Of a stretch of 64,000 nucleotides of DNA, positions 12,535 to 56,666 are shown in pieces. The translations under genes were made by a program, and so were the position numbers. The DNA comes from Nitrospirota bacterium (lineage in GTDB: Bacteria > Nitrospirota > Thermodesulfovibrionia > Thermodesulfovibrionales > Dissulfurispiraceae). Within the stretch, counting starts at the first letter, position 1. The number at the start of each line of letters is the position of its first letter. Location: assembly GCA_963790025.1 (NCBI GenBank), contig CAWBMP010000004.1:128001-192000 (forward strand), read 5' to 3'. Below the pieces are notes generated by a model. The model did not search any database. It worked only from the letters and a program-made list of their open reading frames with translations, and was not told the origin of the DNA.

Positions 12535-12617
12535 GGCAATAGGCGATAGGCTATAGGCTATGGTGTTAATGCTGGAGAAAAAATTGTCCTACAACAACTA
12601 CCTATTGCCTATTGCCT
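12535..12617. repeat. Inverted heptamer-repeat element (GGCNATA)n...(TATTGCC)n
   Basis: GGCAATA GGCGATA GGCTATA GGCTATG ... CCTATTGCCTATTGCC. Confidence 0.85.
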
Positions 12618-12626
12618 GTATTACGC

Positions 12627-13268
12627 TTAGTCGGTGAGTGATATGAGGTTATGCTTTATTGTATAGTTGGTCAATTCGGCATTGCTTTTCATCTTCATCT
12701 TTTCGAGGATGTGGACCCTGTGAGTACTGACAGTTTTCACGCTCAGGAAAAGCTCACCTGCAATCTCGCTGACTGTCTTACCCATAGCTATCATGCATAG
12801 TATCTGATATTCCCTGTCGGAAAGTTTCTCATGAACAGGACGCTCCGCTTCGGGTTCGAGGTCGAAGAGAAGCCTTTCCGCGATGGAGGCGCTGATGTAT
12901 CTGCCTCCCTTCGATATCTTCCTTATGGCATCTATGAGTTCTTCAGAGGCGCTCACCTTTGTAATATAACCGGCGGCGCCCGCCTTTATCGCGCGAACAG
13001 CATACTGCTCTTCGGGATACATGCTCAGTACGAGGACCCTTAGTTTAGGCTTCTGGGTCTTGAGGAGCTTCAGTGTATCGAGCCCGTTCAGGCCGGGCAT
13101 AGCGATGTCGAGCACGAGCAGATCGTAATCGTTCTTTGAAACCTTGTCGAGGACCTCCTGTCCTCCACTCGCCTCATCGGCAACGACCAAATCCGGAACA
13201 TCCTCGAGTATCTGCCTCAATCCTTCACGAAAAATCGCGTGGTCGTCTGCAATAAGTATCCGCGTCAT
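12627..13268 (-). CDS. NarL/LuxR-family response regulator
   Basis: ILIADDH, LDIAMP, LSDREYQIL, LFLSVKTVSTHR. Confidence 0.95.
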   Translation of the reverse strand: MTRILIADDHAIFREGLRQILEDVPDLVVADEASGGQEVLDKVSKNDYDLLVLDIAMPGLNGLDTLKLLKTQKPKLRVLVLSMYPEEQYAVRAIKAGAAGYITKVSASEELIDAIRKISKGGRYISASIAERLLFDLEPEAERPVHEKLSDREYQILCMIAMGKTVSEIAGELFLSVKTVSTHRVHILEKMKMKSNAELTNYTIKHNLISLTD

Positions 13269-13291
13269 ACCAAATTCACCCTCAAAAACCT

Positions 13292-13427
13292 AAACCGCAG
13301 AGCACACAGAGATTATTGTTGCACTCAAAGAACCGAAGTACAGAGAGCCCCGGGATTCTGCTCTGTGTAAGCTCGGTTTTAACTCTTGTTCCAAGATTAA
13401 TCATTTCCTCTGTGTTCTCTGTAGTTT
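13292..13427. repeat. Long imperfect inverted repeat with nested inner hairpin
   Basis: AAACCGCAGAGCACACAGAG (13292-13311) vs CTCTGTGTTCTCTGTAGTTT (13408-13427), 17/20 complementary; inner AACCGA...TCGGTT. Confidence 0.8.
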
Positions 13428-13430
13428 TTT

Positions 13431-15011
13431 TTAATTCAGTGGTATGCTCAATTTTACGGTTGTCCCTTTTCCGGGAATGCCCCCGATGGTGACTTCGCCG
13501 CCGAGGAAACGGGCGCGTTCCCTCATTCCCATGAGTCCGAAAGACTCGTGGCTCGAAACCTTCTCATCGTCGATTCCTGTCCCGTTGTCCCTCACTTCGA
13601 GCAAAAGGCAATTATCTTCTTTTGCGAGGACAACATCAACACGGGTGGCTTTTGAGTGGCGCATCACATTCGTAAGCGTTTCCTGAAATATGCGGAAAAC
13701 AGCGATAGAAATGCCCTGGTCCTCCACCGCCACCTCATGGGATATTACGGCTGAACATTCGGTCCCTGTCTGTTCTTTAAATTCCTTGACCTGCCATTCT
13801 ATTGCAGCCGGGAGACCGAGATAATCCAGCACGCCCGGCCTCAGTTCAGAAGATATTCTCTGGACAGTCCGGATCGTTGTGTCGACAAGGCCTGACATCT
13901 TTTCAGTCTTTTCAATAAGCTGTCGAGGCCCCTCTGACAGCCGTTTTTTCAGCCAGGAGAGATCGAGTTTCAGCCTCGAAAGAATCTGCCCGAGTTCATC
14001 GTGGATCTCGCGGGCGATGTGTCCCCTCTCTTCTTCTCTGGCCGATTGGATATGTGCCGACAGGATCCTCAGTTCCTCACGCGAACTTCTTAGTTCATCT
14101 TCCACTCTTTTGCGCTCGGTTATGTCCCTTCCGATGGTCTTCGTCCTCAGCAGTTCACCGTTTTCATCGAACTCAATGAATACATTCAGTATTGCCGGAA
14201 ATGTCGTACCGTCCTTTCTTATAAACTCTCTCTCGAGGCCGTACAGCGCGGCATGATCTTTCAGGACGGAAAAATCCTTTTCATATATCTTCCGCGATTC
14301 CTCAGTAAGGAAATCAGCGATAGGCCTGCCGATAATCTCGTATTTCGCGTAACCCAACATTTTTGCTTCTGTATCGTTACACTCGATCACAATCCCATTC
14401 CGGTCGATGGAGTGGTACATGTCAGGGGCATTGTCATAAAGGTCGCGGTATTTTTTTTCGCTCTTGTGAAGGGATTTCTGCGTCTCGATAACACTGAGAG
14501 ACTGCTCCGCCAGATCACAGATGAAACGCACAAGTGCCCTGTCGTAAGCAATTATGTAGTTGACCTTCTCGACACTGAAAACCCGTATCTTGTCGAGCGC
14601 AGCAAGATAAGCGTCGAGATCGTAACCGAATTCCCGCGCCTGTCTGATAAAGTATTGTCGGTCGGGAACTTCACCTTCAAAGTAGAATTGTGTCAGGAAC
14701 ATTGTCGCCAGGTGCCGTCCGGCAACAAGTATGGGGAGTGCTACATGCCACATCCCGTTACTGCATTTATATTGATGAAATTCTTTGGTGAGATGGTCTT
14801 CTATGACACGATCGCTCTCAATGCAGCGCCTGTTGGAAAGCGGAAAAGCACGATGATAATTCGTACAGATGTCTGTCCAGCCGGCCTGGACAAGAACTGA
14901 CATGTCGAAAACGTCGACGATACTCATAGGTAAACCGCTGGCCAGGAAGTTGGAATCGGCCAACTTCTGGATAAGCGACATATCGAGGAGCTCGGAAAGC
15001 CGGTAGCTCAC
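13431..15011 (-). CDS. Cytoplasmic histidine kinase: PocR sensor + PAS + HisKA_3
   Basis: PocR-type Cys pattern (ICTNYHR..RCIESD..YKCSNG), PAS, EEERGHIAREIHDELGQ, QETLTNVMRHS. Confidence 0.88.
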   Translation of the reverse strand: MSYRLSELLDMSLIQKLADSNFLASGLPMSIVDVFDMSVLVQAGWTDICTNYHRAFPLSNRRCIESDRVIEDHLTKEFHQYKCSNGMWHVALPILVAGRHLATMFLTQFYFEGEVPDRQYFIRQAREFGYDLDAYLAALDKIRVFSVEKVNYIIAYDRALVRFICDLAEQSLSVIETQKSLHKSEKKYRDLYDNAPDMYHSIDRNGIVIECNDTEAKMLGYAKYEIIGRPIADFLTEESRKIYEKDFSVLKDHAALYGLEREFIRKDGTTFPAILNVFIEFDENGELLRTKTIGRDITERKRVEDELRSSREELRILSAHIQSAREEERGHIAREIHDELGQILSRLKLDLSWLKKRLSEGPRQLIEKTEKMSGLVDTTIRTVQRISSELRPGVLDYLGLPAAIEWQVKEFKEQTGTECSAVISHEVAVEDQGISIAVFRIFQETLTNVMRHSKATRVDVVLAKEDNCLLLEVRDNGTGIDDEKVSSHESFGLMGMRERARFLGGEVTIGGIPGKGTTVKLSIPLN

Positions 15012-16285
15012 AATATGGCGCTAACCTTTTCAACGTGCAGTTTCACCTCACCCGCCGCCTTTTCCAGTATCTCCGCATTCAAACGCAACAGACTTGCGGA
15101 TTTGGTCTTCAGAATTTCCTTCTCTTTTTCTTCCCTGAGACTGAAGCCTAATTCCCTGACAAACAGGTTTGCGAAATGGACGACGACAAGCTCCTGTTCA
15201 GGTTTTTCAAAGGTTGAAATGTCCTCATGGTTCAGGGCCACCAATGGGTAAACAGACGGGAAAGACCACTTCGACAGCAGCATGTATCCCGCCTTATTAT
15301 GCAGGGAGTTCACTGTGTCCAAGGTATGCGTCAGGTCTATTCCCCGCTTGCCTTTTGTCAGTTCCGCAAGCACTTGCAGGACCAGAAGCTTGCCGATATC
15401 ATGAAAAAGCCCCAACGCAAAAAAATTATAATTGTCCGGAATTTCCAGATGTCTCGCTATGGACTCACTCGCCGCTCCGCAAGCTATCGAATGGATAAAC
15501 AGGTCCTTGATAGTACCTTCAAACCGCTTGTCTTTCAGCGCAAACAGGTTTTTGTTCGAGATGAGATAAACAAGCTCTCTGGTTTCATCCATTCCCAGCC
15601 TGCTGATGGCCTCCTCAACCTGGGTGCATTCCTTGCCCCCACTGTAGTATACCGAATTCGAAACGCTGATGAGCCTTGAGGAAATACCCGGGTCCATTTC
15701 GATAAGTTCAGAAAGGGAATGAATATCAGCGTCTTCTTTTCGCAAAGTCTCTTCGATCGTAAAGATAATCTGAGGCATTGCAGGAAGGGTCACTTCCCCT
15801 TTTCCGATAAGTTCCATTATATTTACCGATATGGATTTGAGGTCGACATCGTCCGCTGGAGGCGCCCAGGCATTTTTCATGGGGTCCGCCTGGCGATGCG
15901 CCGGTCCACCCATCAGTTTTTCTATTTTTTGAATCAGCAATGCTTTGTCAAAAGGCTTGATCACGTAATCGCTTACTCCGGCCTTTACTGCCGAGGCCAC
16001 ACTTTCAACGTCTTTTCTTACCGTCAGCATCAAAAAGGCGATTTTGTTTGTACGCTCCTCAGCCTTCATTTTATTCAGAAGCTGGTTGCCGTCCATACGC
16101 GGCATGTTCCAGTCTGAAAGTACCAGATTATAACTTCCGGACTGTATTTTTTCCCAGGCTTCCATACCGTCGGCTGCCGTATCGACTGCCTCGCAAGGGA
16201 AGTTGGATTTTACGATCAGTTTAAGGGCCAGCACTATATTTGCATCATCGTCCGCAATCAGCACCTTCATTTTTTCCTTCATCAC
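15008..16285 (-). CDS. REC-HDOD domain protein
   Basis: REC (LSDWNMP, KPF); HDOD (LPAMP, DPGISSRLISVSNS, GLFHDIGKL). Confidence 0.9.
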   Translation of the reverse strand: MMKEKMKVLIADDDANIVLALKLIVKSNFPCEAVDTAADGMEAWEKIQSGSYNLVLSDWNMPRMDGNQLLNKMKAEERTNKIAFLMLTVRKDVESVASAVKAGVSDYVIKPFDKALLIQKIEKLMGGPAHRQADPMKNAWAPPADDVDLKSISVNIMELIGKGEVTLPAMPQIIFTIEETLRKEDADIHSLSELIEMDPGISSRLISVSNSVYYSGGKECTQVEEAISRLGMDETRELVYLISNKNLFALKDKRFEGTIKDLFIHSIACGAASESIARHLEIPDNYNFFALGLFHDIGKLLVLQVLAELTKGKRGIDLTHTLDTVNSLHNKAGYMLLSKWSFPSVYPLVALNHEDISTFEKPEQELVVVHFANLFVRELGFSLREEKEKEILKTKSASLLRLNAEILEKAAGEVKLHVEKVSAIL

Positions 16286-18960
16286 GCAATACCTCCACGA
16301 GCATTTTTCGAGACAGGCAGAAATATATTGAAAGTCGTTCCTTGTCCAGGTGCGCTTGTAACTATTACATATCCCCCGTGGTCTTTCACCAAACCATATA
16401 CTATGGCAAGACCCAATCCGGTCCCGGTTTTTTTGGTAGTGTAAAAAGGATCAAAAATATGGGCCATGTAATCCTTAGGTATTCCTTTTCCGGTGTCGGA
16501 GCACGTGACATTGACATAACGGCCGCTGCTTATTTGAGCTGGTATCTGGAGTGAGCCGTGCCCCAATTCCACAACCCTTGTCGATATATTTATCTCTCCT
16601 CCTTCGGGCATCGCATCTATGGAATTAAGGACCAGATTCATGATTATCTGCTCAAGCTTGCTCTCATCGCCGTCAACCGGAGGCAGCGATTCATCCAAAT
16701 ATTGATTTATTCTTATATTTTTAGGAATTAGTGTCGATACCAGACCCATCGTTTTCCTGATAACGTCATTAGCTGAAACCTGAACAAAATCACCATACTC
16801 GCGTTTTGCATACGCAAGAAGTTGTGTCACGAAATGTTTGCCCCGTTCTGCAGAGGACTTGACTATACTTGCATATTGGTCAATATCAGAAGAGGTACCT
16901 TCGCTTGAGGAAATCAGGTCCGCATACAAGCTGACCGTGGTCAGGATGTTTCCGAAGTCGTGGGCGATTCCTCCCGCAAGTGTTCCGATAGATTCCATTT
17001 TTTGAGCATGGATAAGCTGTGCCAGCATTTTTTTCCTTTCAGTAATATCACGGTGGAATGCCTGTATATATACTTTCTGGTCTATCAGCATGGATTTGGC
17101 GCTGATCTCAATAAAGCGGAAACTGCCTTCTTGGCTATAATATCTGGTCTCGAACAGCAACGTCTCACCCCGCTGCAACCGCTGCAGCTGCTCCGTCCAG
17201 GCCGATCCGTCTTTTTCAGACCTGAACAATCTCATACGTTGTCCAATCAATTCACTGCTGTCGGTTTCATACATCGAATATGCCTGTTTATTCGCGTTCA
17301 CAATAATTCCGTTATCGTCGGAAATGACTATCCCGTCCATGGAATTATCCATAATGGCTGCCAGCTGATACATTGCAGCCTCCGCTTCTTTGTGCTCGGT
17401 AATGTCTTCGTTTATGCCGTCTATCCATTTCAGTTCACCATTTTCATCATATGCTGCGGTGGCGGTCATCGAACACCAGATGGTCTTCCCGTCCTTTTTC
17501 TTCATGGCTATAACTTTGTTGTTCACGTAACCGTCGCGCCTGAGCTCATCAATATAGCCCTGTCTGTCTTCAGGGTTCCTCCACATTTCCTCCACCTTGA
17601 CTGCCAGCATCTGATCTGCTGACTCGTACCCGTGCATATGTGCCAAAGCCGGGTTTACCCGGATGAAATGTCCGCCTCCGGCAGGACTTCTAAAGATGCC
17701 GACATTTATATTGTCAACCAGTGTGTGGTATTCCATTTCGCTCTTCTGAAGGGACTGCAATACCTGCCCCTTTTCTTCGATCTCACGTTGAAGCGATTGG
17801 TTGTAAGCATCCAGTTTTTCCATAAAACCGTTAAAATATCGTGACAATTTGCCGAATTCATCTTCCGGGGTATCTGATATCCTGGCCGAAAAATCACCCG
17901 CGCTGCCTGCCTTGAATCCGGCGATAAGCCTGTTGAGACTGTTGATGATATATGAGCCATACCAAAACGTCAGAAAAAATAAAAATATCAGTGATGTGAC
18001 AAACATTACGATTAGAGTATTTCTGATATATGCAAGAGGCGCATATATTTCGTCAACATAGGCCGAGGCCGCCACGATCCAGTCCAGTTCAGGGATATAA
18101 TTAAAGAAAACCAGTTTATAGCGCAGGTTTTTTTCTCCCGGGTTTCGCCACGGATAGATTATCCTGCCGTTCTTTTGTTTGCAAAGCTCCTGAACAAAAG
18201 CCCTTCCGCTTGCGTCCTTCAAGTTAAAGAAGTTCCTTCCCTCCAGCAGGGGATGAATTATCATATTACCTTTGGAATCGACAACAAATGGGTATCCGGT
18301 TTTTCCAATACGGATACCTATTATACCTTCCCTGAAATCTTTCACGTCGAGAAGACTTAAGAATTCCTCACGGTATGCCGAGACGGATATGATCCAGTCC
18401 CAGGGCCCAAAATATGTCATATAGAGAGCTTTCGGTCTGGCCCTTGCTTCCCCGGGATTTGCCCACTCGTACTCCATATAGCCTTCCTTCCTCTTTAGCT
18501 GTTCCCGGACAAAGACATACTGGGTATTACGGGTCCCAACTAAAGCAGCTACAGGATGCACCCGGATGGCCCCCCCGCTGTCAATGCAATAGACGTAGCC
18601 GCTCTTGCCGATATGCTGACTAAGCAACATCGATATAGCGCGTTTCTTTGCGTCGCCCTCGCTTATCTCGCCCCGCATGTACTGCTCGTACAGACCTTCA
18701 AGTATATACTTGTCCTGTTCCGCCACTGCCCGGAGGTAGTTCTCTATGGATACGTGCACACCAGTTTTAACCATGTTAAGAATAGTCCTTGAAGTGTTAT
18801 TCAGTTCGCTTTCTATATTCCTCTCGATAGTCTTTCGGACAATGGGATAAATAATCAAAATACCTATGGAAAGTGTCAGCATGAATGCCGTCAGATATCC
18901 AAACAGCAATTTTGAACGTATTTTAAGGTTGGTTATTTTCTCTGAAAGATTAAAAGTCAA
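16282..18960 (-). CDS. Membrane histidine kinase: Cache-HAMP-PAS-PAS-HisKA-HATPase
   Basis: Two TM helices, tandem Cache motifs (GYVYCID..HP, GYPFVVD..HP), DEFGKL HAMP, LAGGIAHDFGN, GTGLGL. Confidence 0.9.
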   Translation of the reverse strand: MTFNLSEKITNLKIRSKLLFGYLTAFMLTLSIGILIIYPIVRKTIERNIESELNNTSRTILNMVKTGVHVSIENYLRAVAEQDKYILEGLYEQYMRGEISEGDAKKRAISMLLSQHIGKSGYVYCIDSGGAIRVHPVAALVGTRNTQYVFVREQLKRKEGYMEYEWANPGEARARPKALYMTYFGPWDWIISVSAYREEFLSLLDVKDFREGIIGIRIGKTGYPFVVDSKGNMIIHPLLEGRNFFNLKDASGRAFVQELCKQKNGRIIYPWRNPGEKNLRYKLVFFNYIPELDWIVAASAYVDEIYAPLAYIRNTLIVMFVTSLIFLFFLTFWYGSYIINSLNRLIAGFKAGSAGDFSARISDTPEDEFGKLSRYFNGFMEKLDAYNQSLQREIEEKGQVLQSLQKSEMEYHTLVDNINVGIFRSPAGGGHFIRVNPALAHMHGYESADQMLAVKVEEMWRNPEDRQGYIDELRRDGYVNNKVIAMKKKDGKTIWCSMTATAAYDENGELKWIDGINEDITEHKEAEAAMYQLAAIMDNSMDGIVISDDNGIIVNANKQAYSMYETDSSELIGQRMRLFRSEKDGSAWTEQLQRLQRGETLLFETRYYSQEGSFRFIEISAKSMLIDQKVYIQAFHRDITERKKMLAQLIHAQKMESIGTLAGGIAHDFGNILTTVSLYADLISSSEGTSSDIDQYASIVKSSAERGKHFVTQLLAYAKREYGDFVQVSANDVIRKTMGLVSTLIPKNIRINQYLDESLPPVDGDESKLEQIIMNLVLNSIDAMPEGGEINISTRVVELGHGSLQIPAQISSGRYVNVTCSDTGKGIPKDYMAHIFDPFYTTKKTGTGLGLAIVYGLVKDHGGYVIVTSAPGQGTTFNIFLPVSKNARGGIA

Positions 18961-18989
18961 CGCTTGCTTTCTTCGTAAAATACCGGTCT

Positions 18990-20666
18990 TTATTCATCAC
19001 GCATGATTGCGCCGTTTCCTGCAGAACTCACAAGTTTCGCATAACGGGAAAGATATCCGTGGCGTATCTTGGGCTGAGGTCGTTTCCACCCGGCAAGCCT
19101 TTCCTTGATCTCCCTGTCTGAAATAAGAACTTCTATTTTCCTTTTCGGAATATCGATATTGATCCTGTCACCGTCTTTCAGGATTGCAATAGGGCCGCCT
19201 TCCATCGCTTCCGGTGAAATATGGCCGATGCAGGGCCCGCGGGTGCCGCCCGAGAATCTGCCGTCCGTAATCAGTGCAACAGATTCGCTTAACCCCATCC
19301 CTGCAATAGCGGACGTAGGCGACAGCATTTCCCTCATCCCCGGTCCGCCCTTCGGCCCCTCATATCGTATGACCACAACATCACCAGCTTTTATGTCGCC
19401 ATTCATTATTGACTTCATGGCGGCTTCTTCGGAGTCAAAAATACATGCCGCACCTTCAAATTTCATAATATTTTTGCTTACCGCAGTCTGCTTGACAACA
19501 GCCCCTTCAGGCGCCAGGTTCCCCTTCAGTATCGCTATTCCGCCCTCTTTATGATAGGCCTTGTCCAGAGACCTGATTACATCCTCATCCATTATCATTG
19601 CTTCCCTTGCGATCCTGGAAATATTCAATCCGGAAACGGTTAGAGAAGGGTTGAGCATTCCCTTGAGCCGGTTAAGCACTGCAGGAATGCCTCCTGCATG
19701 GTCCAGGTCCTCCATATAGTAGACACCTCCGGGGATCATGCTGGTAATATGAGGGGTCTTCCGGCTGAGGATATTGAAAATCTCAAGTGGCAGCTTTACT
19801 CCGGTTTCATAAGCAATAGCAGGAATATGCAGGGTAGTATTAGTAGAACCGCCAAGTGCGAGGTCGACCATGATAGCATTTTCAAAGGCCTTCCCTGTCA
19901 TTATTTTGCGGGGTGTTATATTCTTTTTAACCAGGTCCACAACCCTCCTGCCGCTCTCAAAAGCTATTCTTCTTTTTTGGGCCAGCACTGCAGGGGAAGT
20001 GGCGCAACCGGGTAAACTCATCCCGAGTGCCTCGGTAATGCAAGCCATCGTGTTGGCAGTATACATTCCCTGGCACGAGCCGGCGCCGGGACAGGCACAC
20101 ATTTCCATGGCTTCCAGCTCATCGTCTTTTATCAATCCCTTCTTATATTTTCCCACTGCCTCAAATGTATCACTGGTAAGATTAAGCCTCCTGCCCTTAT
20201 AATGCCCTGAAAGCATGGGGCCGGCAGTTACCACTATGCTGGGAATATTCACCCTGGCGGCGGCCATGAGCATGCCTGGTGTTATTTTATCGCAGTTGGT
20301 AAGAAGTACCAGACCGTCAAGCTGGTGTGCCTCTGCAACGGTTTCAACCATGTCTGCAATCAACTCCCGCGAAGCGAGGGAATAATGCATTCCTTTATGA
20401 CCCATGGCAATACCGTCACAGATGCCCGGAATGCCAAAAAAGAAAGGATAACCGCCCCCTGTGTGGACACCCTTCTCAATAAAGCGTTCAAGGTCCCTCA
20501 TCCCCGCGTGTCCGGGAATAATATCGGTAAAACTGGTTGCAACCCCTATAAAAGGTTTTTCCATCTCGCTTTTGGGGATGCCTGTTGCGTAGAGGAGAGC
20601 CCTGTGAGGTAGCCTTTCAAGCCCTTTTTTAATAGTTTTGCTTCTCATAATTACCCATTTACTCAT
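18990..20666 (-). CDS. ilvD: Dihydroxy-acid dehydratase (alternative start 20648)
   Basis: [38 protein letters not shown]. Confidence 0.97.
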
Positions 20667-20673
20667 TCTCCCT

Positions 20674-20898
20674 TTAGTTGATGCCCCTCTTAAAGTGCTT
20701 TATCAATTCCGCTATTTTGTCTTTTTTGGAAAGCTTTTCCTTCTTCATCCGGAGTACTTCAAGTTCTTCTTCAGGTGTAAGGTAATGTTTTTTGTTAAGC
20801 TCCGAAAGTATGCTATCCAGTTGCCTATGTTCCTGGTAAAGCCTTCTGAACTCTTCATTGTCCTTTTTTAAAGTTTCAATGATTTCCTCTTCGCTCAT
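20674..20898 (-). CDS. DUF465/YdcH family small coiled-coil protein
   Basis: [13 protein letters not shown]...[12 protein letters not shown] pattern; strong RBS. Confidence 0.8.
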
Positions 20899-20955
20899 AT
20901 AGCATCCCTCCCTTTTATTTATTATCTATAGAATTTTACAACAAACTTACAAAAA

Positions 20956-21028
20956 CAGTAAATGAGTAGATGGGTAAATGGGTAATAAAAAAAGTCTTTT
21001 ACCAATTTACTGATCCACTCATTCACTG
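20956..21028. repeat. Inverted octamer-repeat element (RGTAAATG)n
   Basis: 30-nt arms 20956-20985 and 20999-21028, 25/30 complementary. Confidence 0.85.
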
Positions 21029-21946
21029 TTTTGCAGGCATCTCAATGGGCTTGGTGAATTCCAAGGGGTTCCTGGGCGCAACATTGAGCGGCCCGAACAA
21101 GGATTTCTTTTGCTCCTGCCCGGCAGCCGGTTTTTCTGCAGCCGGTGCTGGAGCTTTTGTCTCGGCAGGCTGGACCGTCATCGGCGGCCGCGGAACTCTC
21201 TCATTGAGCACAATTATGCTGATTCTCCTGTTTCTGGAGTCAGTGGGACTATCTTTATAAAGCAGTTGGGTATCGGCATAGCCGACTACCCGGGCAATCC
21301 TGCCGGAGTCAACACTGTTCTGCTCAAGATTCCGGCGGGCAGTTGACGCCCTTTCAGTAGATAGTTCCCAGTTGGTATACTTTTCACGCTTAAGGGGGGA
21401 TGAATCTGTATGGCCTTCCACAGCGATCTTGTTCGGCATATCTTTAATATTATCCGCAACAAAGCCTAAAATTTCTTTTGCGCTTGAACTAAGCTCCGCT
21501 CCGCCGGGAAGGAACATCGGTTTGCCCTCTGTATCGACAACTTGAATTCTAACGCCCTCCGGGACGGCATCAATCATCACATGTTCTTTCAGTCCCTGCA
21601 ATTTCTCGTCTATCGCTTTTTTCAGCTTGTTTTGGAAATCTTCGGCAAATGCCTTTGCAGACTCCTGGGAGACGGTCTGCGCTTCACCGCCAGGTTTGGA
21701 TAAAATCTGTGAAGATTCTTGCATGAACGACTTGCCGGATTTTTCAAATATGGAGAAGTTCTTGAAATATTCTGCCATAGAGGCCCTCTTCTGAGGCGTG
21801 ACCATCGCAAGCAGCCACATCAGCAGGAAAAAGGCCATCATTGCGGTCACAAAATCGGCATAAGCGACCTTCCAGCTGCCCCCGTGGCCGCCTTCGTGTC
21901 CCCTCCTGATTTTTTTGACTATTACAGTCTTGGATTTGTCAGCCAT
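21023..21946 (-). CDS. motB: Flagellar stator MotB
   Basis: GGSWKVAYADFVTAMMAFF; EGHTD, NWELSTERA, NRRI. Confidence 0.95.
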   Translation of the reverse strand: MADKSKTVIVKKIRRGHEGGHGGSWKVAYADFVTAMMAFFLLMWLLAMVTPQKRASMAEYFKNFSIFEKSGKSFMQESSQILSKPGGEAQTVSQESAKAFAEDFQNKLKKAIDEKLQGLKEHVMIDAVPEGVRIQVVDTEGKPMFLPGGAELSSSAKEILGFVADNIKDMPNKIAVEGHTDSSPLKREKYTNWELSTERASTARRNLEQNSVDSGRIARVVGYADTQLLYKDSPTDSRNRRISIIVLNERVPRPPMTVQPAETKAPAPAAEKPAAGQEQKKSLFGPLNVAPRNPLEFTKPIEMPAKQ

Positions 21947-21957
21947 CTAAAAAATCA

Positions 21958-22053
21958 GGCAAAGGTAGAGGTAAAGATTAAGACAAATTAGATCAAAAAT
22001 AAAAACTTTATCTTTATCCTTTTCTTTACCTTCCTTACTTACCTTTACCTGCC
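21958..22053. repeat. Inverted hexamer-repeat element (GGTAAA)n...(TTTACC)n
   Basis: GGCAAA GGTAGA GGTAAA GATTAA GACAAA ... TTTATC TTTATC CTTTTC TTTACC .. TTTACC. Confidence 0.75.
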
Positions 22054-22911
22054 TCACTTCTTCAGTTCCCTTATTTTTTCCTCAATTTCTACGAATGAGG
22101 GTTTCACGTTAGCGGGGATTACCCGTCTGCCGAATTCCACTGCAATTTGCGGCGCTGCCCCCCCTACAAATCCTACAAGGGCTATCTTTAATACATTCAG
22201 GTAATCTCTTTCTTCATTTGCACCGAACTCGAGATTTTTTGCCGCGGGCCCGACAAAGCCATAGCACATCAACACACCAAGAAAAGTGCCCACCAGCGCC
22301 GAGGCAACACTGTGCCCGATAATTTCGGGAGGTTCGCTTATTTTCCCCATCGTTATGACAACACCAAGGACCGCCGCAACAATTCCGAGGCCCGGGAGGG
22401 AGTCGGCAATCGTACCGATACTCTTGGATGGGATCATTAATTCTTCATGATGCGACTCAAGCTCTGTATCGAGCAGAGATTCGAGTTCATGCGGCGCTAT
22501 ACTGGTGGTCATTACCGTCCGCAGGGTATCGGTAACCAATGAAACAGCATGATGATTTTTAAGAAATTTAGGGTAGTTGCTGAAAATCTTGCTTTCCTCA
22601 GGGTTGTCCACGTCAGCCTCAATCGAAACAAGACCCTCTTTTCGTATTTTTGCGAATATTTCACTTAAAAGCAAAAGCACTTCTATATAATCACCCTTGG
22701 AATATGTCTTGCCTGTAAGTAGTTTAACAATACCGCCAATAACGGCCTTGATGACCTTGACAGGAGAGGCTATAATAAAACCACCGATTGCCGCTCCAAA
22801 TATTATAAGCAGTTCGACCGGCTGAAAGATAACACTGAGGTTTCCTTTCTCTATCATAAAACCGCCGATAACACAACCAAAAACGATGACCGCTCCGATT
22901 ATAGCAAACAT
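22054..22911 (-). CDS. motA: Flagellar stator MotA (E. coli-like subfamily)
   Basis: QPVELLIIFG, PGLGIVAAVLG, ALVGTFLG, AVEFGRR. Confidence 0.95.
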   Translation of the reverse strand: MFAIIGAVIVFGCVIGGFMIEKGNLSVIFQPVELLIIFGAAIGGFIIASPVKVIKAVIGGIVKLLTGKTYSKGDYIEVLLLLSEIFAKIRKEGLVSIEADVDNPEESKIFSNYPKFLKNHHAVSLVTDTLRTVMTTSIAPHELESLLDTELESHHEELMIPSKSIGTIADSLPGLGIVAAVLGVVITMGKISEPPEIIGHSVASALVGTFLGVLMCYGFVGPAAKNLEFGANEERDYLNVLKIALVGFVGGAAPQIAVEFGRRVIPANVKPSFVEIEEKIRELKK

Positions 22912-22921
22912 AAAACCTCGT

Positions 22922-23470
22922 TCATCTGCGTTTTTCCCTTAGTATTTCACGCTGTTTGCTGAAGACGAATTTGACAATTTCATCCCTGACATCCTCATCC
23001 ATGGCAATAAATTTTGTCGCAGTCAGGTAGTTGTTCTTGAGCTGTTCAGTCTTTACGACTTCTCCGTAAATAAAAAGTGCAACAGGCGGCATCATCGGTA
23101 AAATTATCTTGATCTCGAGAATATCTCCCATCTTAAAACTGTTTTTGGAAAAAAACCCGATGCCGCCCCCGCTAATATTGACATGGGCATAAGGCATAGA
23201 GCCAAACCCCTCTCTCTGAAAAGAAAGCATGCTCACAATAGCATCGAGCTTTGAGTTAAGTGCCTTGATCCATTCACTAAGGACCTTGTCCTGCAACTCC
23301 GGCATTGCACGAGTCTCGGCAAAGGCCGTGCCGCCTGAAGGTCTGGCCCTTATAGTGCCGTGTTCCTCTGCCGGCACCACTCTCGTCTCAAAAGGGACAT
23401 GAGCATCAACCCTGGAGAATTCTCTCGCTTTTTGATATTCTTCTTCATCCTGTGCCATAAAAACCCCCAA
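22922..23470 (-). CDS. PilZ domain protein
   Basis: REFSR (RxxxR) and NISGGG motifs. Confidence 0.85.
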   Translation of the reverse strand: MGVFMAQDEEEYQKAREFSRVDAHVPFETRVVPAEEHGTIRARPSGGTAFAETRAMPELQDKVLSEWIKALNSKLDAIVSMLSFQREGFGSMPYAHVNISGGGIGFFSKNSFKMGDILEIKIILPMMPPVALFIYGEVVKTEQLKNNYLTATKFIAMDEDVRDEIVKFVFSKQREILREKRR

Positions 23471-23476
23471 AGAACA

Positions 23477-23563
23477 GGTATAGGTAAAGATGCAGGTAAA
23501 GACAAAAATTAGCTTCTTTTTTGCTTCTCTTTCCCTCTCCCGCTACCTTTGCCTCTACCTTGC
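23477..23563. repeat. Second inverted hexamer-repeat element
   Basis: GGTATA GGTAAA GATGCA GGTAAA GACAAA ... TTTCCC TCTCCC GCTACC TTTGCC TCTACC. Confidence 0.75.
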
Positions 23564-23566
23564 TTT

Positions 23567-24211
23567 CTATTGCGCTATTATTATTTCAACCCGCCTGTTC
23601 TTCTGCCTGCCCTCTTCGGTGGCATTGCTCTCCAAAGGCCTGAATTCAGCATATCCCGCAATTGAAAATTTGGTTGGATCAACCCCTTTTTCAATAAAAA
23701 AATGGAGTATGCTGGCGGCCCTGGCAGTGGACAACTCCCAGTTAGAAGTATATTTGGAGCTTGCTATCGGGATATTGTCCGTATGCCCCTCGATGGTAAG
23801 CTTTCCATGGGCAGCATTCAGCACTTTCGAAAGCTCCGTCAGAACTGACTGTATTTCCGTCTTGACATCCGCAGACCCTGAGGCAAAAAGAACACCATCC
23901 GAGAATGTTATCACCACCCCTCGCGGCTCGTTCTTTACAGTAATGCCCTTCAGGTCCGAGGTCACCTTCCTTATATCATCTATAAGCATTGATTTTTGGG
24001 TGTCCATGAGTGCAATAGGTTTGTCCATTACCTTGAAGCTCGCATTAAGTGAACCCGAAAACTGCTCCATTTTTTTTATATCAACCGAGGACAACGCATA
24101 AAGGGCAACAAAAAATGTGAACAACAATGTAATAAAATCAGCATAGGATATCAGCCACCTTTCGCTGTTATCATGCTCTTCTTCACTATATCGATTATTT
24201 CTCACAATCAC
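23567..24211 (-). CDS. motB: Second stator B subunit (MotB/MotD-like); start may be GTG 24205
   Basis: RWLISYADFITLL, EGHTDN, NWELSTARA, NRRVEI. Confidence 0.92.
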   Translation of the reverse strand: MIVRNNRYSEEEHDNSERWLISYADFITLLFTFFVALYALSSVDIKKMEQFSGSLNASFKVMDKPIALMDTQKSMLIDDIRKVTSDLKGITVKNEPRGVVITFSDGVLFASGSADVKTEIQSVLTELSKVLNAAHGKLTIEGHTDNIPIASSKYTSNWELSTARAASILHFFIEKGVDPTKFSIAGYAEFRPLESNATEEGRQKNRRVEIIIAQ

Positions 24212-24241
24212 TCCGTTCGTTCACGCACAACGCTGAACGCC

Positions 24242-24997
24242 TCATGACTTTTCATAGTCCGCCAGAAATGCATTCATGCGGGCTTTGAGAAAGTAAGGGT
24301 TGACGCCGCTTTCGATTCCCAGGACACCCTCAACTATCAGTTCCTTGACAAATACCTCCTCTTTAAGCCTGTTCATCACCTTTTTGCCGAGAGGTATGAG
24401 AAAAAGGTTGGCTGATCCGACACCGTAAATCGTTGCAACGAAGGCGACTGCTATTCCACCGCCGATTTTTGACGGATCGGTGACATTACGCATGACCTGA
24501 ATAAGACCCAGAACAGCGCCTAATATGCCTATGGTCGGTGCATACCCGCCAGCTGACTCATATACTTTTGATGCTTTTTTGTAGGTTTCCTCATAGGTGG
24601 AAATCTCCTGGTAAAGTATTTCCTTTATCATTGCAGGAGGAATACCGTCGATGACAAGCGACAACCCTTTCCTCAGGAATGGGTTGTCGATAGTTTTGAC
24701 CTGAGACTCAAGGGTCAGCAGACCCATCTTCCTGGCCTTAACCAGAAGACCTAAAATGTCCTCTATTACTTCACCGGGCGATGACGACCTGCCGCCGAAG
24801 ACCATGCCAAGCGCCATGACAGCATTAAATAAATCCCTGATCGAAAAGCTCAGCATAGTCGCGCCCAGCGTACCGCCGAAAACGATTATTGCCGCGGCGA
24901 CCTGTACAAGATGGGCGGTGTTGCCGCCTTCAACCAGGTTTCCGCCGATTATAGCGCCTATTCCGAGAATAATGCCTATTAGTGCAGCTATATCCAT
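24242..24997 (-). CDS. motA: Second stator A subunit (MotA/MotC-like)
   Basis: GGYAPTIGILGAVLGLI, AFVATIYGV. Confidence 0.92.
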   Translation of the reverse strand: MDIAALIGIILGIGAIIGGNLVEGGNTAHLVQVAAAIIVFGGTLGATMLSFSIRDLFNAVMALGMVFGGRSSSPGEVIEDILGLLVKARKMGLLTLESQVKTIDNPFLRKGLSLVIDGIPPAMIKEILYQEISTYEETYKKASKVYESAGGYAPTIGILGAVLGLIQVMRNVTDPSKIGGGIAVAFVATIYGVGSANLFLIPLGKKVMNRLKEEVFVKELIVEGVLGIESGVNPYFLKARMNAFLADYEKS

Positions 24998-25040
24998 TTT
25001 TTCCTGATGCCGCGAAATTTGCTTTATTATATACTATTTG

Positions 25041-25394
25041 AGTAAATGGGTAAATGGGTAGATGAGTGGACGGGTAAATAAGTAAATGGGAACGCGGTAA
25101 TACTTGACACACTACTGTCAAACCTCGTGGAGCTTGTTACGAAGAAACACTTGGATATTAGCCTTAAAGACATTGAAAGTGACATTAAGCTGCTCAAATG
25201 GATCATGGGCGTTATAATTGCAGGCACCTATCTATATAATCCACCCATTTACTCATAAACTTATTTACTCGTACACTCATACACTCGTTCACCCATTTAC
25301 TCATTTACTCTTTTACTTTTCTCATATACTCATTCACGCACTCACACTTTCACTCATCCCCCCACTCACACTTTCACTCATTCCCCCATTCACC
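25041..25394. repeat. Large inverted octamer-repeat element bracketing a gene relic
   Basis: Six RGTRRAYR units at 25041-25088; CATTTACT-like units from 25238 continuing into the fliS 3' end. Confidence 0.88.
25127..25258 (+). pseudogene. Relic resembling the C-terminus of DUF1640/CCDC90-like small coiled-coil membrane proteins
   Basis: ELVTKKHLDISLKDIESDIKLLKWIMGVIIAG; no ATG or RBS, upstream in-frame stop. Confidence 0.55.
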
Positions 25395-25765
25395 GTATCC
25401 TTGATCTGTGTCCAACCTTCGCGCACGTCTTTCAGCAGGGAGGCAATGTGGAGCAGTTTGGCGCCGTCATTGCTGACATTTGCCATGAAAATCTCTGTCA
25501 TCATATAACCATACAGGCCGCGCAGGTTCACAGCCACTTCTCCTCCTACATCCATATCCAGGCTCCTGTCGAGCTCCTCGATGATTGCCAATGCGTTGCT
25601 GATATATTTCAGCTTTATATGCAGGTTTTTCATGTTTATCCCTGTGGCTGCCTTATGAAGGAACTCGATGGCCCCATCGTAAAGCATGATAATCAGGTCA
25701 ACAGGGCTGCCGCCGACAACCTTTGCCTGAGTGTAAGAATTCAGGGCATACGCTGTGTTTACCAT
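25334..25765 (-). CDS. fliS: Flagellin export chaperone FliS
   Basis: SPVDLIIMLYDGAI, GGEVAVNLRGLYGYM, VREGW. Confidence 0.95.
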   Translation of the reverse strand: MVNTAYALNSYTQAKVVGGSPVDLIIMLYDGAIEFLHKAATGINMKNLHIKLKYISNALAIIEELDRSLDMDVGGEVAVNLRGLYGYMMTEIFMANVSNDGAKLLHIASLLKDVREGWTQIKDTVNGGMSESVSGGMSESVSA

Positions 25766-27288
25766 TAGTAACTCTTCGGATTGGTGAGAAGATTAGTTTG
25801 TGTTGTTAAATAGTTGCCTATGATGTTGTCGTTTGTGACGGTGGTGGCAAGGCTGGAGTACTCGCTTATAAGATCAGTCTGTTCCACATTCAGTTGGCTC
25901 TGCAGTTGAGTATACTGACTTTGCAGGTTGGTTACTTGCGTCTGATAATTACTCTGTTCTCCCGGGATTGTTGTAGTTATATAATTGCTAAGGTCTGATC
26001 CAAACGAGCTCGCCATATTATTTATCATCGTGGTGATATTGGCCGAATCCGTCTGATATACGTTGCTGAGTGTTGACGAATTAAAACTCAGGACACCATT
26101 CTTGTCAAGTGAAAAACCGAGATAAACAAGACTGTTATTTGCCGGGTCTTGTTCGGTGCCATATGATGACGTTATCGAATTCATCATATCAGTCGACAAT
26201 GTGAGCAATCCTATATCTCCGCTCAGTAATCCCTGGTTTGTTTGAGTAGCCTGCGTGCCCGCCGGCACAGGCTGGTAGAGATTACTTATGGTACTCATAG
26301 CGCTATTGTATGCCGTGACAAATGAATTCAATTGGTTGGCCAGCGAACTGCTGCTGGCAGCAACATCGAGACTTAAATTCGGCGAGGCGGCGTTATAAGA
26401 AGGGTCCCCTTTAAGAAGGTTTAAAGTGACCCCTGTCACTGCATCAGTGACAGTATTGCTCGACCTCTGGATCTCGACACCATTTACGCTCATAGTGGCG
26501 TCAATGGCTGCCATTGTCTGGGTCATGTTCTGTATACCGCCTGTGGGCACGCCGGAGCTATCGTATGACCCGCCATTTGTTGGATCGAAGGCAAGCTGTG
26601 ACAGTCCGGTCATATCCGTATTGACGCCTGATTCGGCCCAGCCCCCGCCGAAGTTGCTTCCGGTCTCATCGACTTTGACGGTGATTCTGTTCGAGCTGCC
26701 GGTCGCATTTGAAGTCAATCCCAATTCATATGAATTGCTGGACACCTGCAGCACTGATGCGGTAACGCCTGCGTTTGCAGAGTTGATGGCCTCCGCTATC
26801 CCCGACAGGGTATTGTTTCCGCTGTTTATATTTATCGTGGCGGCAGTACTGGAACCGACCTGTATCTGTAATTGCTGTGTTCCAACAACAGACAGATCTG
26901 CGACAGCACTGGTCGCCGAGCCGAAAGTCGTGGAATAAACGGTTTGGGTGGTCGCAATATTTTTAATATCTATTCCGGTTGTGCCGGCCACAGCACCGCT
27001 TGCCGCAGTTGCAGTGAAATAAGATGAATCCGATGGAGTTGCCGACAGCCCTGTGGTGGAATTTTGCATTGCAGTCACAGCACTTTGCAGGCCCGACAGA
27101 CTTGAAAGCACTGTCCCATACGCGCTTATATCCGTCTGAACATTTGTTTCTTGTTGCTGAAGAGTGGTAAGAGGCTCGGAGTCAACATCCATAATCTGCT
27201 GGACAATGTTGCTTACGTCAATGTTAGATGACCCGCCGAGGCCAAAGGCTGATAAAAGACTTGAAACATCTATTGGGCTGGTTGCCAT
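25765..27288 (-). CDS. fliD: Flagellar cap protein FliD
   Basis: SNIDVSNIVQQIM, AINSANAGVTAS, RSSNTVTDAVTGVTLNL, FVTAYN; located between flaG and fliS. Confidence 0.92.
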   Translation of the reverse strand: MATSPIDVSSLLSAFGLGGSSNIDVSNIVQQIMDVDSEPLTTLQQQETNVQTDISAYGTVLSSLSGLQSAVTAMQNSTTGLSATPSDSSYFTATAASGAVAGTTGIDIKNIATTQTVYSTTFGSATSAVADLSVVGTQQLQIQVGSSTAATININSGNNTLSGIAEAINSANAGVTASVLQVSSNSYELGLTSNATGSSNRITVKVDETGSNFGGGWAESGVNTDMTGLSQLAFDPTNGGSYDSSGVPTGGIQNMTQTMAAIDATMSVNGVEIQRSSNTVTDAVTGVTLNLLKGDPSYNAASPNLSLDVAASSSSLANQLNSFVTAYNSAMSTISNLYQPVPAGTQATQTNQGLLSGDIGLLTLSTDMMNSITSSYGTEQDPANNSLVYLGFSLDKNGVLSFNSSTLSNVYQTDSANITTMINNMASSFGSDLSNYITTTIPGEQSNYQTQVTNLQSQYTQLQSQLNVEQTDLISEYSSLATTVTNDNIIGNYLTTQTNLLTNPKSY

Positions 27289-27365
27289 ATCAGTTCCTCC
27301 AAACTAGTATCAGAGTCAGTTGGAAAATGAGTGATAAGCATAAGGAAATCAACTCATTTACTATT

Positions 27366-27392
27366 TTATCGGGATATTCAGATTAATCTTTA
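27366..27392 (-). promoter_or_regulatory. sigma28 promoter of fliD
   Basis: TAAA-N15-CCCGATAA. Confidence 0.8.
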
Positions 27393-27432
27393 ACAGTGAA
27401 AAGCAGTAAATGTGCGGATGAGTATACTCTTT

Positions 27433-27831
27433 TTACGCTGTTTTGTGGAATAAACTCTCTGCAACCTGATTCAACTCTTTCATCATTAGCAAGTAATCTT
27501 CAGGCGGGTATTGGCGTACTATTTTCCCATCATTATCAAAAAAGCGTATTACAACATTCTTATCTTCATCAAGGGTAATAACACCTTTCGTGCCGCTAAG
27601 TACAGCGGGTGCGGAAGCGCTCGTTGTTCCAGCCTGCCCGCTTGCCGGCTTGGCAGCTTTCCCATTTGAAGTGCTGGTAACAGTAACAAGGTCATCCTGC
27701 AAAGCATTGCCTTCATTTGATGTGTTGTTCGCCGCCACGGACACATCCGGCCCACTGGTTGCCTGAAGGTCCGGCTGGACCTTTATATCCGGTATATTCG
27801 GCGTATTTATTGCACTTGTCTCCACGTTCAT
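27433..27831 (-). CDS. flaG: FlaG family protein
   Basis: GKIVRQYPPEDYL; located between flagellin and fliD. Confidence 0.85.
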   Translation of the reverse strand: MNVETSAINTPNIPDIKVQPDLQATSGPDVSVAANNTSNEGNALQDDLVTVTSTSNGKAAKPASGQAGTTSASAPAVLSGTKGVITLDEDKNVVIRFFDNDGKIVRQYPPEDYLLMMKELNQVAESLFHKTA

Positions 27832-27863
27832 CCCACTCGCCTATTATAAATCCTTTTTTTATT

Positions 27864-27896
27864 CAGGGCGGTCCTCCGTGAGGAGGACCTGCCCTG
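27864..27896 (-). terminator. Hairpin after downstream flagellin, without U-tract on the coding strand
   Basis: CAGGGCAGGTCCTCC-TCAC-GGAGGACCGCCCTG followed by AATAAAAAAA on the minus strand. Confidence 0.55.
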
Positions 27897-27939
27897 TGTT
27901 TCTGCTTACCTCTTAATCCTTAACCCTTACTTACTGCTG

Positions 27940-44111: not shown

Positions 44112-44112
44112 G

Positions 44113-50747: not shown

Positions 50748-51012
50748 GGCGCCAACATTTCTTATCGCCTTGTATTTTCGGCTTATTCTTTTGATTTATT
50801 TGGCGGAAGCACATATTTTCAATTCGCAAAGGGAAATTTTTTCCTGTCAACAAATTGACTATATGAACTGCCCCCGGCATTTCTTAGAAATAACTCTGAG
50901 GAAAAGCATCAGCGTGCTTATGCTGAATCTGTTGTATAATATTTCTTTCATAATAAATAAATATCCGTCACAAAATACCGGGAAGTGACTATCCGAAGAT
51001 TTGGAATCTTTT

Positions 51013-52623: not shown

Positions 52624-52642
52624 GAGAGTGGTTATAGCGATT

Positions 52643-54685
<2,043 letters not shown>

Positions 54686-55183
54686 TTATCTTTCGGCCCC
54701 TTTTGCTGTTTCATAAAGGAATCTCACCGCCTCAAGCGCTGCCTGCTCCTTATTTGAAGTCCTGTCTCCTGTGAGCCTGAGCTCTTTTGTCACGGTTTTT
54801 GCGGGCATACTCACAGCGATGTAGACAAGGCCCCGGGTCTTTCCCTCAAGCACATCGGGGCCCAGATTCCCTGTCGTAGCAAGGGCGTAATCTGTTTTAA
54901 GCAAAGCACGCGTCTTTTCTGCCATTTCGCGTGCTGCAGCATCGCTGATTATACCGTATGTCTCGATAGTGCCGGAAGCGAGGCCGAGTATGATACTTTT
55001 TGATGCATTCGAGTAAGTAACAACGCCCGCCTGAAAAAAAGCGCTCGAGCCCGGCAGCAATGTCATATAGTGGCTGATCAGCCCTCCGGTGCATGATTCG
55101 GCGACAGAAAGTGTCAACCCTTTTTTTACAAAAAGTTTATGCACATTCCTGATAATTTTCGACATCTCTTCGTTCATCTGCAT
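54686..55183 (-). CDS. pncC: CinA C-terminal/NMN deamidase
   Basis: AESCTGGL, PGSS, TYSN..K, TGNLGP. Confidence 0.85.
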   Translation of the reverse strand: MQMNEEMSKIIRNVHKLFVKKGLTLSVAESCTGGLISHYMTLLPGSSAFFQAGVVTYSNASKSIILGLASGTIETYGIISDAAAREMAEKTRALLKTDYALATTGNLGPDVLEGKTRGLVYIAVSMPAKTVTKELRLTGDRTSNKEQAALEAVRFLYETAKGAER

Positions 55184-55320
55184 TTAAGATACTATAACCC
55201 ATGTCAGGAAATTTCTCATGCCCTGCCATTATTGCAAAACGGTATACTTGTACGATACTATATTATCGTTATGGCATCGAAATTCCCGGGGATTAAAGGA
55301 CCGGACAGCAAAATAAAGTA

Positions 55321-56583
55321 ATGGATTTATTTCAACAGGAAGAGACATCGCCGGAAAGGACCGGCGCGCCCGATACCAATGCCCCGCTCGCTTACCGCAT
55401 GGCCCCCCGCACACTCGATGAATATATAGGACAGGAGCACATTCTCGGCAAGGGCAAACTGTTGAGACGCGCCATTGAAGCCGACAGGATCAGTTCGTTA
55501 ATACTTTATGGCCCTCCAGGCACCGGCAAGACAGCGCTCGCCAGGGTAATAGCGAACATGACAAAAGCCCATTTCGAATGGCTCAACGCGGCAGTTGCAG
55601 GTCTCGATGACCTCAGAAAGATTATACAGTCGGCAAAGGCTCGCAGATTGAACGGCGTGCGCACAGTGCTCTTCCTCGATGAAATTCACCGGTTCAACAA
55701 ACTGCAGCAGGACGTGCTGCTTCCGGATGTGGAGGAAGGCGTCATTACCCTGATTGCTGCGACGGTCGAAAACCCTTTTTTCTATGTCAACTCTGCGCTT
55801 ATTTCGAGAAGCCAGGTTTTTGAACTGCAACCACTCAGCGAGCAGTCTCTTCTTCGAATCCTGGACGCGGCGGCGAATGACACAGAGCGCGGATTGGGCG
55901 GCCTGAAAATCGCGGTCGATAGTGACGCACTGCGCCATATGGCAAAAATGTCTGCCGGCGATGCCAGGAAAGCGCTGTCCGCCCTGGAGCTTGCAGTGCT
56001 GTCCACCCCTCCGGGTGAAGACGGCGCCCTGCATGTGACGCTTTCTACGGCAGAGGAATCGATCCAGAAAAAGGCCGTTGTATACGATAAAAAAGGTGAC
56101 CAGCACTATGACACGATCTCGGCTTTCATAAAAAGCATGCGCGGCTCTGATCCTGATGCGGCTGTATATTATCTTGCCAAAATGCTTTATGCAGGAGAAG
56201 ACCCTCGTTTTATAGCGCGCAGGATAGTAATATGTGCTTCAGAGGATGTAGGCGATGCCGATCCTATGGCTTTAGTTATTGCGACGTCGGCACTGAGAGC
56301 AGTTGAATTTGTCGGCATGCCCGAGGGTAGAATACCTCTTGCCCAGGCTGCCATCTATATTGCTTCTGCCCCGAAAAGCAATGCCTGTTACCGTGCAATC
56401 GAGGCGGCGCTGGATGATATAAAAAATGAAGAGACGATGGAAGTGCCGGATCATTTAAAAGACAGCAGCTATCCCGGAGCCAAGAAACTCGGCCACGGGA
56501 AAGGCTACAAGTATCCCCATGATTACGGCGGTCATGTAGAGCAGGAATATCTCAAGAAGAAACGAAGCTATTATAAACCATAA
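55321..56583 (+). CDS. rarA: Replication-associated recombination protein A
   Basis: GPPGTGKT, LDEIHRF, HYDTISAFIKSMRGSD, YKYPHD. Confidence 0.95.
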   Translation: MDLFQQEETSPERTGAPDTNAPLAYRMAPRTLDEYIGQEHILGKGKLLRRAIEADRISSLILYGPPGTGKTALARVIANMTKAHFEWLNAAVAGLDDLRKIIQSAKARRLNGVRTVLFLDEIHRFNKLQQDVLLPDVEEGVITLIAATVENPFFYVNSALISRSQVFELQPLSEQSLLRILDAAANDTERGLGGLKIAVDSDALRHMAKMSAGDARKALSALELAVLSTPPGEDGALHVTLSTAEESIQKKAVVYDKKGDQHYDTISAFIKSMRGSDPDAAVYYLAKMLYAGEDPRFIARRIVICASEDVGDADPMALVIATSALRAVEFVGMPEGRIPLAQAAIYIASAPKSNACYRAIEAALDDIKNEETMEVPDHLKDSSYPGAKKLGHGKGYKYPHDYGGHVEQEYLKKKRSYYKP

Positions 56584-56589
56584 AAACCA

Positions 56590-56666
56590 GGCGATAGGCT
56601 ACAGGCTATTGGAATAATATCTTTTCTGTTGCTTTGACCTGTCGCCTATTGCCTATTGCCTATCCC
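56590..56666. repeat. Inverted heptamer-repeat element (same family as 12535)
   Basis: GGCGATA GGCTACA GGCTATT ... TGTCGCC TATTGCC TATTGCC TATCCC. Confidence 0.85.

Follow-up and report, generated by a model that had tools for sequence, protein, structure and literature searches.

REP and REPIN sequences are numerous short intergenic palindromes tied to a rare cognate gene for a RAYT transposase, whilst cyanobacterial STRR sequences are intergenic tandem heptamers. MITEs are short, non-coding and bounded by inverted ends, and may depend on an autonomous partner. Other intergenic heptamers have been described as GGGAATC in Xanthomonas and Nostoc (PMC4692102) and as TAACTGA in the Beggiatoaceae (PMC4679880). 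In the excerpted text of these papers, the former calls reports of 6-9-nt repeats rare, and the latter saw no mechanism of transfer and speculated on a mobile repeat-binding protein. The closest known kind to the elements described here is the ORF-bearing intervening sequence (IVS) of 23S rRNA. According to the excerpts of PMC4990558, IVSs have terminal inverted repeats, are cleaved by RNase III and carry two or three heptamers ahead of an S23p ORF, with examples in Coxiella and Leptospira. The Avd protein of DGRs is a structural homologue of the PF05635 family, as stated in the part of PMC10053308 that was available.

The stretch of DNA analysed here (the window) comprises 64,000 nt from a Nitrospirota bacterium whose genome (G000) is 98.8% complete; in what follows, G-numbers denote the genomes of relatives and L-numbers denote loci. 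The original prediction was that seven intergenic sites in the window share one architecture, a purine-rich arm of short tandem words followed by a complementary pyrimidine-rich arm. Each site was found where it had been predicted, with its predicted word and in that order of arms, and the arm-to-arm alignment scores (27-64) were above the maximum of 200 shuffles at 7/7 sites. Three weaker candidates that were added (near 24220, 27300 and 27400) did not score above the shuffle maximum. Two of the seven are empty elements of the heptamer GGCNATA: one at 12535..12616 (site 12535), directly past the stop codon that ends a LuxR-type response regulator gene (12627-13268, minus strand) and upstream of an FAD-linked oxidase gene, the other at 56589..56668 (site 56590), between rarA/mgsA (55321-56583, plus strand) and gpmA. 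An empty element of 9-nt CACAGAG-type words (13284..13432, site 13292) lies between the histidine kinase and response regulator genes. The octamer RGTAAATG forms an empty element at 20952..21032 (site 20956), within whose arm the stop codon of motB (21023-21946, minus strand) is found, and an element with a gene relic inside at 25039..25331 (site 25041), between fliS and motA. Empty elements of the hexamer GGTAAA are found at 21957..22050 (site 21958), between motA (22054-22911, minus strand) and motB, and at 23469..23566 (site 23477), between a second motB (23567-24211, minus strand) and a PilZ gene. Sense-strand folding gave z-scores of -2.8 to -9.6, the latter at site 20956, and an Rfam search of the window returned one tRNA and nothing else. 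Most of the sites had been described as sitting inside tightly coupled operons; sites 12535 and 25041 are not so placed, their spacers being 160 and 336 nt.

In common with the 23S rRNA IVS, these elements have a PF05635 family gene between complementary, stem-forming ends, albeit in filled members only, the seven window copies being without the ORF. The upstream tandem heptamers vary in number and the distribution is sporadic in both, as far as the IVS excerpts go. Unlike the IVS, the window elements lie outside rRNA, between protein genes. Moreover, both arms are periodic here, with words of 6, 7, 8 or 9 nt tied to protein clades, neither of which features in the excerpted IVS description; measured against the same excerpts, a further difference is that gene-less copies number well over a hundred per genome. 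The heptamers of PMC4692102 and PMC4679880 likewise occur as arrays of about four units near stop or start codons, with some inverted pairs and a patchy spread over phyla, but the excerpts of those papers deal with a single word each and name no cognate gene family or filled state. The literature searched, mostly freely available articles in their main text, held no paper that connects such genes with periodic inverted arms anywhere but in rRNA.

The resemblance to REP/REPIN-RAYT systems lies in short intergenic palindromes past stop codons and in a rare cognate gene. However, the cognate gene here has no known transposase domain, the arms are tandem words, and near-identical copies are absent among the 109 spacers compared. 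The Y1 transposases of the window genome have other ends, with periodic arms in 0/11 of the flanks inspected around its 11 Y1_Tnp matches. Terminal inverted repeats are shared with MITEs, but here there are no near-identical copies and no linked DDE partner, and the genes found between the same ends are TIGR02436 and TIGR04256 rather than a transposase. No target-site duplication was evident at orthologous junctions, where the relatives are diverged (84-89% protein identity). DGRs differ in that the window genome is without a reverse transcriptase, there being no RVT_1 (PF00078) match in the 98.8% complete assembly.

The original prediction also proposed that the genome be scanned for periodic inverted arms. 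In a set of 3251 genes, called for this analysis by a custom script, a genome-wide detector found such arms in at least 138 of the 1854 junctions of 30-700 nt, as against 0, 1 and 0 elements in three dinucleotide shuffles of the junctions. Elements are therefore present at 138/3246 of all gene junctions, at least 4%, and since the strict detector passes only 3/7 of the window sites, 138 is a floor. The commonest period was 7 nt (n = 97), as in STRR-type heptamers, followed by 6 nt (n = 22), 8 nt (n = 13) and 9 nt (n = 6). The purine arm precedes the pyrimidine arm in 125/138 elements, with 2-6 units per arm (6 being the detector ceiling), a median spacer of 40 nt and a median of 37 stem pairs. 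AAGTAAA is the commonest word class in the window genome (n = 26) and, like most word classes there, has no resident gene. Elements are found between mRNA genes and also at the ends of tRNAs and of CRISPR arrays.

The window genome has only two PF05635/TIGR02436 genes, one of them at C2:647844-648209. Both lie within hexamer arms, and no hexamer pairs in the first scan were longer than these two. The four-helix-bundle protein matches 2GSC (E = 4e-17, five chains) and, weakly and far below the cut-off, the Avd model NF033474 (E = 5e-6); its closest named relatives are mostly from Nitrospirota. A third, truncated copy (C2:471281-471189) is found between GGCNATA arms. Its 31 aa are 74% identical to the protein of congener locus L107 (E = 1.6e-11), and G009 carries a whole gene at the orthologous junction. 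Twenty-five same-genus cargo loci were placed on the window genome. Both flanks could be mapped automatically for three, which correspond to one relic and two bare junctions; L107 itself, which follows a tRNA, has an empty hexamer element as its counterpart there, and the remaining 21 gave one-sided mapping or none. At L086, two copies that share their arms stand side by side, one empty and the other internally deleted. A search for a GxxExxY gene in the window genome gave no match. The cargo is essentially of two families, four-helix-bundle and GxxExxY, and the suggestion of a system that inserts and excises small cargo genes of many kinds is not supported, nor is precise excision or the involvement of a recombinase.

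The relic at site 25041, which had been predicted from the sequence, is real: a 5'-truncated CCDC90-like (PF07798) fragment at 25088-25258 on the plus strand, antisense to the operon. It shares 67% identity over 36 aa with an intact gene in G005 (L182), and was the sole gene of up to 900 nt cleanly within arms among 1832 tested, in a scan that missed both four-helix-bundle genes. Of five related CCDC90-like loci in the genus, L182 lies between heptamer arrays and four do not, and the orthologous junction of G016 holds a broken CCDC90-like gene that is unrelated to it and lacks arms. Since only one in five is so placed, the relic is probably a passenger caught between arms, and not regular cargo.

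We then turn to the relationship between word and protein. PF05635 gave 158 matches in 50/68 family genomes, of which the 91 better-scoring loci were examined (89 with an open frame). Arms flank 78/89 of these family proteins, as against 8/60 in a swapped-flank control. Many of forty weaker matches also had arms by eye; among them, no periodic arms were seen by eye at five Avd-like, DGR-like matches that precede a repeat we take to be a DGR template repeat, nor in a group from genera g12 and g9. The word was identical in 18/18 cross-genus pairs of at least 70% protein identity, in 24/35 at 60-70% and in 154/2536 below 50%, whilst same-genome pairs below 60% identity shared it in 2/67 cases. 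The nearest neighbour from another genus had the same word in 40/78 cases (shuffled mean 6.8, maximum 18). Kin sequences are not independent and these figures are therefore descriptive; the protein tree is a neighbour-joining tree without support values. An out-of-sample case agrees, the L186 protein being nearest to that of L141, both with the word GCGTCAA. Amongst 80 relatives of the window genome's protein, which span about nine phyla (as grouped by record titles, with a handful repeating loci already counted), 67 have arms and 58 have the same hexamer with at most one mismatch.

The empty copies follow the same pattern. Hexamer empties occur in 8/8 family genomes with a hexamer-clade gene and in 8/60 others, and seven of those eight without the gene belong to genera that hold it. 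GGYNATA empties are present in 18/68 genomes; in G001, the listed variant agrees with the arms around that genome's own gene. Species in which one word is abundant include G001, G002 and G004. The octamer word of sites 20956 and 25041 was found after a four-helix-bundle gene in L416, and the CACAGAG word of site 13292 after GxxExxY genes in L113 and L118; other GxxExxY loci have different 9-nt words. Proteins of the GGCNATA clade include those of L133 and L143. Each of the four words in the window can thus be assigned to cargo, CACAGAG to GxxExxY and the other three to clades of the four-helix-bundle protein. The word tracks the protein lineage and not the host. Of the proposed correlation between unit period and cargo family, it is the exact word that goes with the protein clade; period alone does not. 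The linkage of word and clade could be plain co-inheritance.

Junctions orthologous to the window sites reveal bare, empty and filled states, as the original prediction had supposed. Between motA and motB (site 21958), nine congeners comprise four bare junctions (3-6 nt), two with hexamer arms, two with different heptamers and one of 73 nt without arms, and in other genera 7-, 8- and 9-nt words are found as well. Most metagenome motA-motB junctions are short (71/77), but hexamer arms are present in L187, and in L186 a complete TIGR02436 four-helix-bundle gene lies within GCGTCAA arms. The alignment of orthologues thus places a small gene between arms at the same junction, the only one of the seven window sites seen filled with a cargo gene in relatives. 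A host tree built by neighbour joining from 717 columns, with 100 bootstraps, places the window genome as sister of the bare G005 and G007 (99%) and L186 with the bare G008 and L188 (95%), so that gains, losses and replacements have recurred. Four other sites vary likewise. At site 12535, G002 and G003 have hexamer arms and G007 just a 20-nt terminal hairpin; at site 13292, G007 is bare (14 nt) and G002 and G003 have hexamer remnants. Site 23477 has the hexamer in G001, G007 and G009, an octamer-like word in G003, CACAGAG in L187 and a heptamer in L186. At site 56590, G003 has a GGTNATG variant and G014 is bare (17 nt). Within one genus, junctions range from bare to five or more words. Cassettes turn over at these junctions, mostly just past stop codons, and internal deletion can turn filled copies into empty ones.

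Taken together, the window sites probably belong to a family of small selfish cassettes that turn over at gene junctions, and are copies devoid of a gene. When filled, a cassette consists of a tandem word rich in purines, then a gene of the four-helix-bundle (PF05635/TIGR02436) or GxxExxY type, then the complementary word. Avd binds RNA. The cargo protein, an Avd-like pentamer, would bind its own word on both arms; arms are mostly of 3-5 units, and by analogy the pentamer and such arms would be compatible with a repeat-reading ring. Binding would let filled and empty hairpins of that word insert elsewhere with the help of host repair or recombination enzymes, filled and empty copies being autonomous and non-autonomous partners and the moving form RNA or DNA. 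Once settled, arms would drift by slippage with complementarity kept, so that every copy would become unique. The word stays constant across phyla while host and flanks change, from which we infer that it is under selection, and as one host carries many words its simplest selector would be the cargo protein. That the cargo protein recognises its own word, and that this recognition both keeps the word and drives hairpin mobility, is a plausible proposal that we put at a little under even. A simple transposon model is opposed by the absence of a reverse transcriptase, of arms at the 11 Y1 transposases, of near-identical empties, of gene-end traces in 41 hexamer spacers and of a resident gene for most words. 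The ten identical empties of G067, considered as a recent burst, lie within a larger repeat, itself dispersed, whose inner stem is a different one in G021 and G010, and are read as hitch-hiking. Contigs from four DNA runs, of patchy low cover, contained no joint deleting just an element.

Several other explanations can be weighed against this reading. The spacers are AT-rich and the units degenerate, which would favour an artefact of chance or composition, but the 138 elements stand against 0-1 in shuffles and reversed-pattern controls gave 0 matches across 68/68 family genomes; an artefact is refuted by these counts and is of negligible probability. More substantial is the proposal that the elements are hairpins with a regulatory role for the host, as terminators, RNase III sites or mRNA stabilisers, which arise on the spot through slippage, and that small genes favour such sites. 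It agrees with the position of the elements. Of the element ends next to a stop codon, 145/158 are no more than 25 nt away from it (median 3), as opposed to 62/118 of those next to a start, the stop codon falls within the paired stem in 80/156 cases, and in roomy co-directional spacers the element is closer to the stop in 13/15. Junctions with at most 40 nt of other DNA hold 88 elements (5 expected by length, 66 by junction count), and those with more than 250 nt hold 3 (82 and 20 expected). Moreover, the rate at convergent junctions is 2.3-fold higher (32/371 per junction; co-directional 94/2507, divergent 12/368); a depletion at divergent junctions was significant for 30-700 nt spacers but not across all junctions, and was dropped. 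The folds are stable, the pooled count of wobble pairs is higher for the sense strand (302 vs 243, p = 0.013), and at fliS (site 25041) the element replaces the short terminator-like hairpin of most congeners. However, the wobble bias is not significant per element (41 vs 33, p = 0.42) and is absent in filled cassettes (460 vs 446), and control spacers show the same sense bias in folding energy. Nor are the elements ordinary terminators. The predicted lack of a short GC stem and U-tract was borne out at the six sites in 12000-28000, none of which is among the 12 terminator-like matches there, and the stems are far from short (median 37 pairs), though it is not complete, a U-tract being present at 17/92 co-directional elements. 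A need for stop codons does not account for the words, stop triplets being present in 32/57 and 24/49 units as against 31.3 and 22.4 when permuted. Lastly, the word goes with the cargo lineage and not with the host, and a single genus shows anything from bare junctions to five or more words. An origin as host hairpins is therefore improbable, although secondary use of elements by the host is possible at single sites.

A second alternative grants the cassettes but not the mobility of their empty forms: only filled cassettes would insert, empties would be scars of gene loss, and binding of the arms by the protein would not be required. The intermediates in the window genome (the GGCNATA relic) and at L086 are what this model expects, as are the unique spacers of the empties. 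Yet there are about 135 empties to 2 genes and 1 relic, and gene ends are kept in 0/41 hexamer spacers. Some GTAAGCA-class spacers are alike, which suggests descent of empties from empties, and survival of the word at 50-60% protein identity across phyla is left unexplained. We consider the model unlikely, though less so than host hairpins, and retain the reading of a cassette family with filled and empty members.

The elements are thus most readily understood as copies, emptied or non-autonomous, of IVS-like cassettes that have gone beyond rRNA, each lineage with its own word. On sequence grounds, we tentatively suggest that they may form a class of mobile element that is new and has no transposase of its own, in which each lineage of Avd-like four-helix-bundle protein or GxxExxY nuclease would read a private 6-9-nt word and drive insertion of its hairpins where transcribed units have their 3' ends (stop codons, the ends of tRNAs, CRISPR repeats, the loops of other hairpins and rRNA helices). 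Three matters are tied together by such a reading: where rRNA IVSs come from, the excess of intergenic heptamer repeats, and the GxxExxY and four-helix-bundle (S23p/Avd-like) families. If true, the rRNA IVS would be a special case, and the heptamer arrays between bacterial genes would be its non-autonomous debris. The family would furthermore offer a natural collection of proteins that read specific repeat sequences, for which the word-to-clade table supplies matched and mismatched pairs of protein and repeat. For the organism itself, elements at no fewer than 4% of junctions, coupled operons included, may reshape operon expression.

Four-helix-bundle cassettes, built on a purine-rich tandem word and its complementary arm, were also found at the ends of CRISPR arrays. 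Among 170 loci screened under a criterion of at least three repeat ends, 4 carried such a cassette at the array end in place of the terminal spacer (L108 in G054, L161 in G081, L099 in G047 and L086 in G016). At L086 the same arms occur on two adjacent copies, one of which is empty whilst the other is internally deleted. Within the genome that holds the window (G000), one gene of a polysaccharide cluster sits between two four-helix-bundle cassettes (C2:646450-651600). The two proteins are 74% identical, and an empty element of the CACAGAG type lies immediately upstream.

Pyrimidine 8-nt arrays were additionally observed within the coding sequence of the downstream neighbour of a filled cassette, approximately 130 nt past the gene start. 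These intragenic arrays are found at L151 (G004), L152 (G002), L154 (G001) and L158 (G003), and the word differs between genomes; preservation of the reading frame across them was assessed by eye. The array is not present in the G000 orthologue (C2:590866).

Returning to the window, two unlike motAB stator pairs surround a PilZ-domain gene in a single operon (21023-24997), the gene order of which is kept across the family. Two flagellin genes of 493 aa each (27940-29421 and 29842-31323) have near-identical flanking DNA, and between them lies a short relic similar to the gene start found after L182, an intact CCDC90-like locus. A pyrimidine-rich arm (27890-27939) stands alone immediately past the flagellin stop; its heptamers are mixed, and relatives have other words at this position. 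On the reverse strand, positions 1560-2185 hold a putative small AbrB-like gene followed by an apparent broken PIN-domain gene.

Eleven Y1_Tnp matches mark IS200/RAYT-like genes in G000 (e.g. C5:249450, C2:671964 and C2:673191), whose own ends are short conserved palindromes; two of these genes are identical and 1.2 kb apart. A long inverted repeat also separates divergent genes at C4:570435-570600, and is near-perfect whereas the periodic arms are degenerate.

Lastly, a dispersed structured repeat of approximately 140 nt is present in at least 10 near-identical copies in G067 (L350-L358), with related copies in G021 (L050) and G010 (L069). Its outer stems are complementary yet differ from copy to copy, and its inner stem is exchangeable, being a hexamer hairpin in G067. 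An Rfam scan of five copies gave no match at the repeat, which may represent a mobile RNA or REP-like family not previously described.
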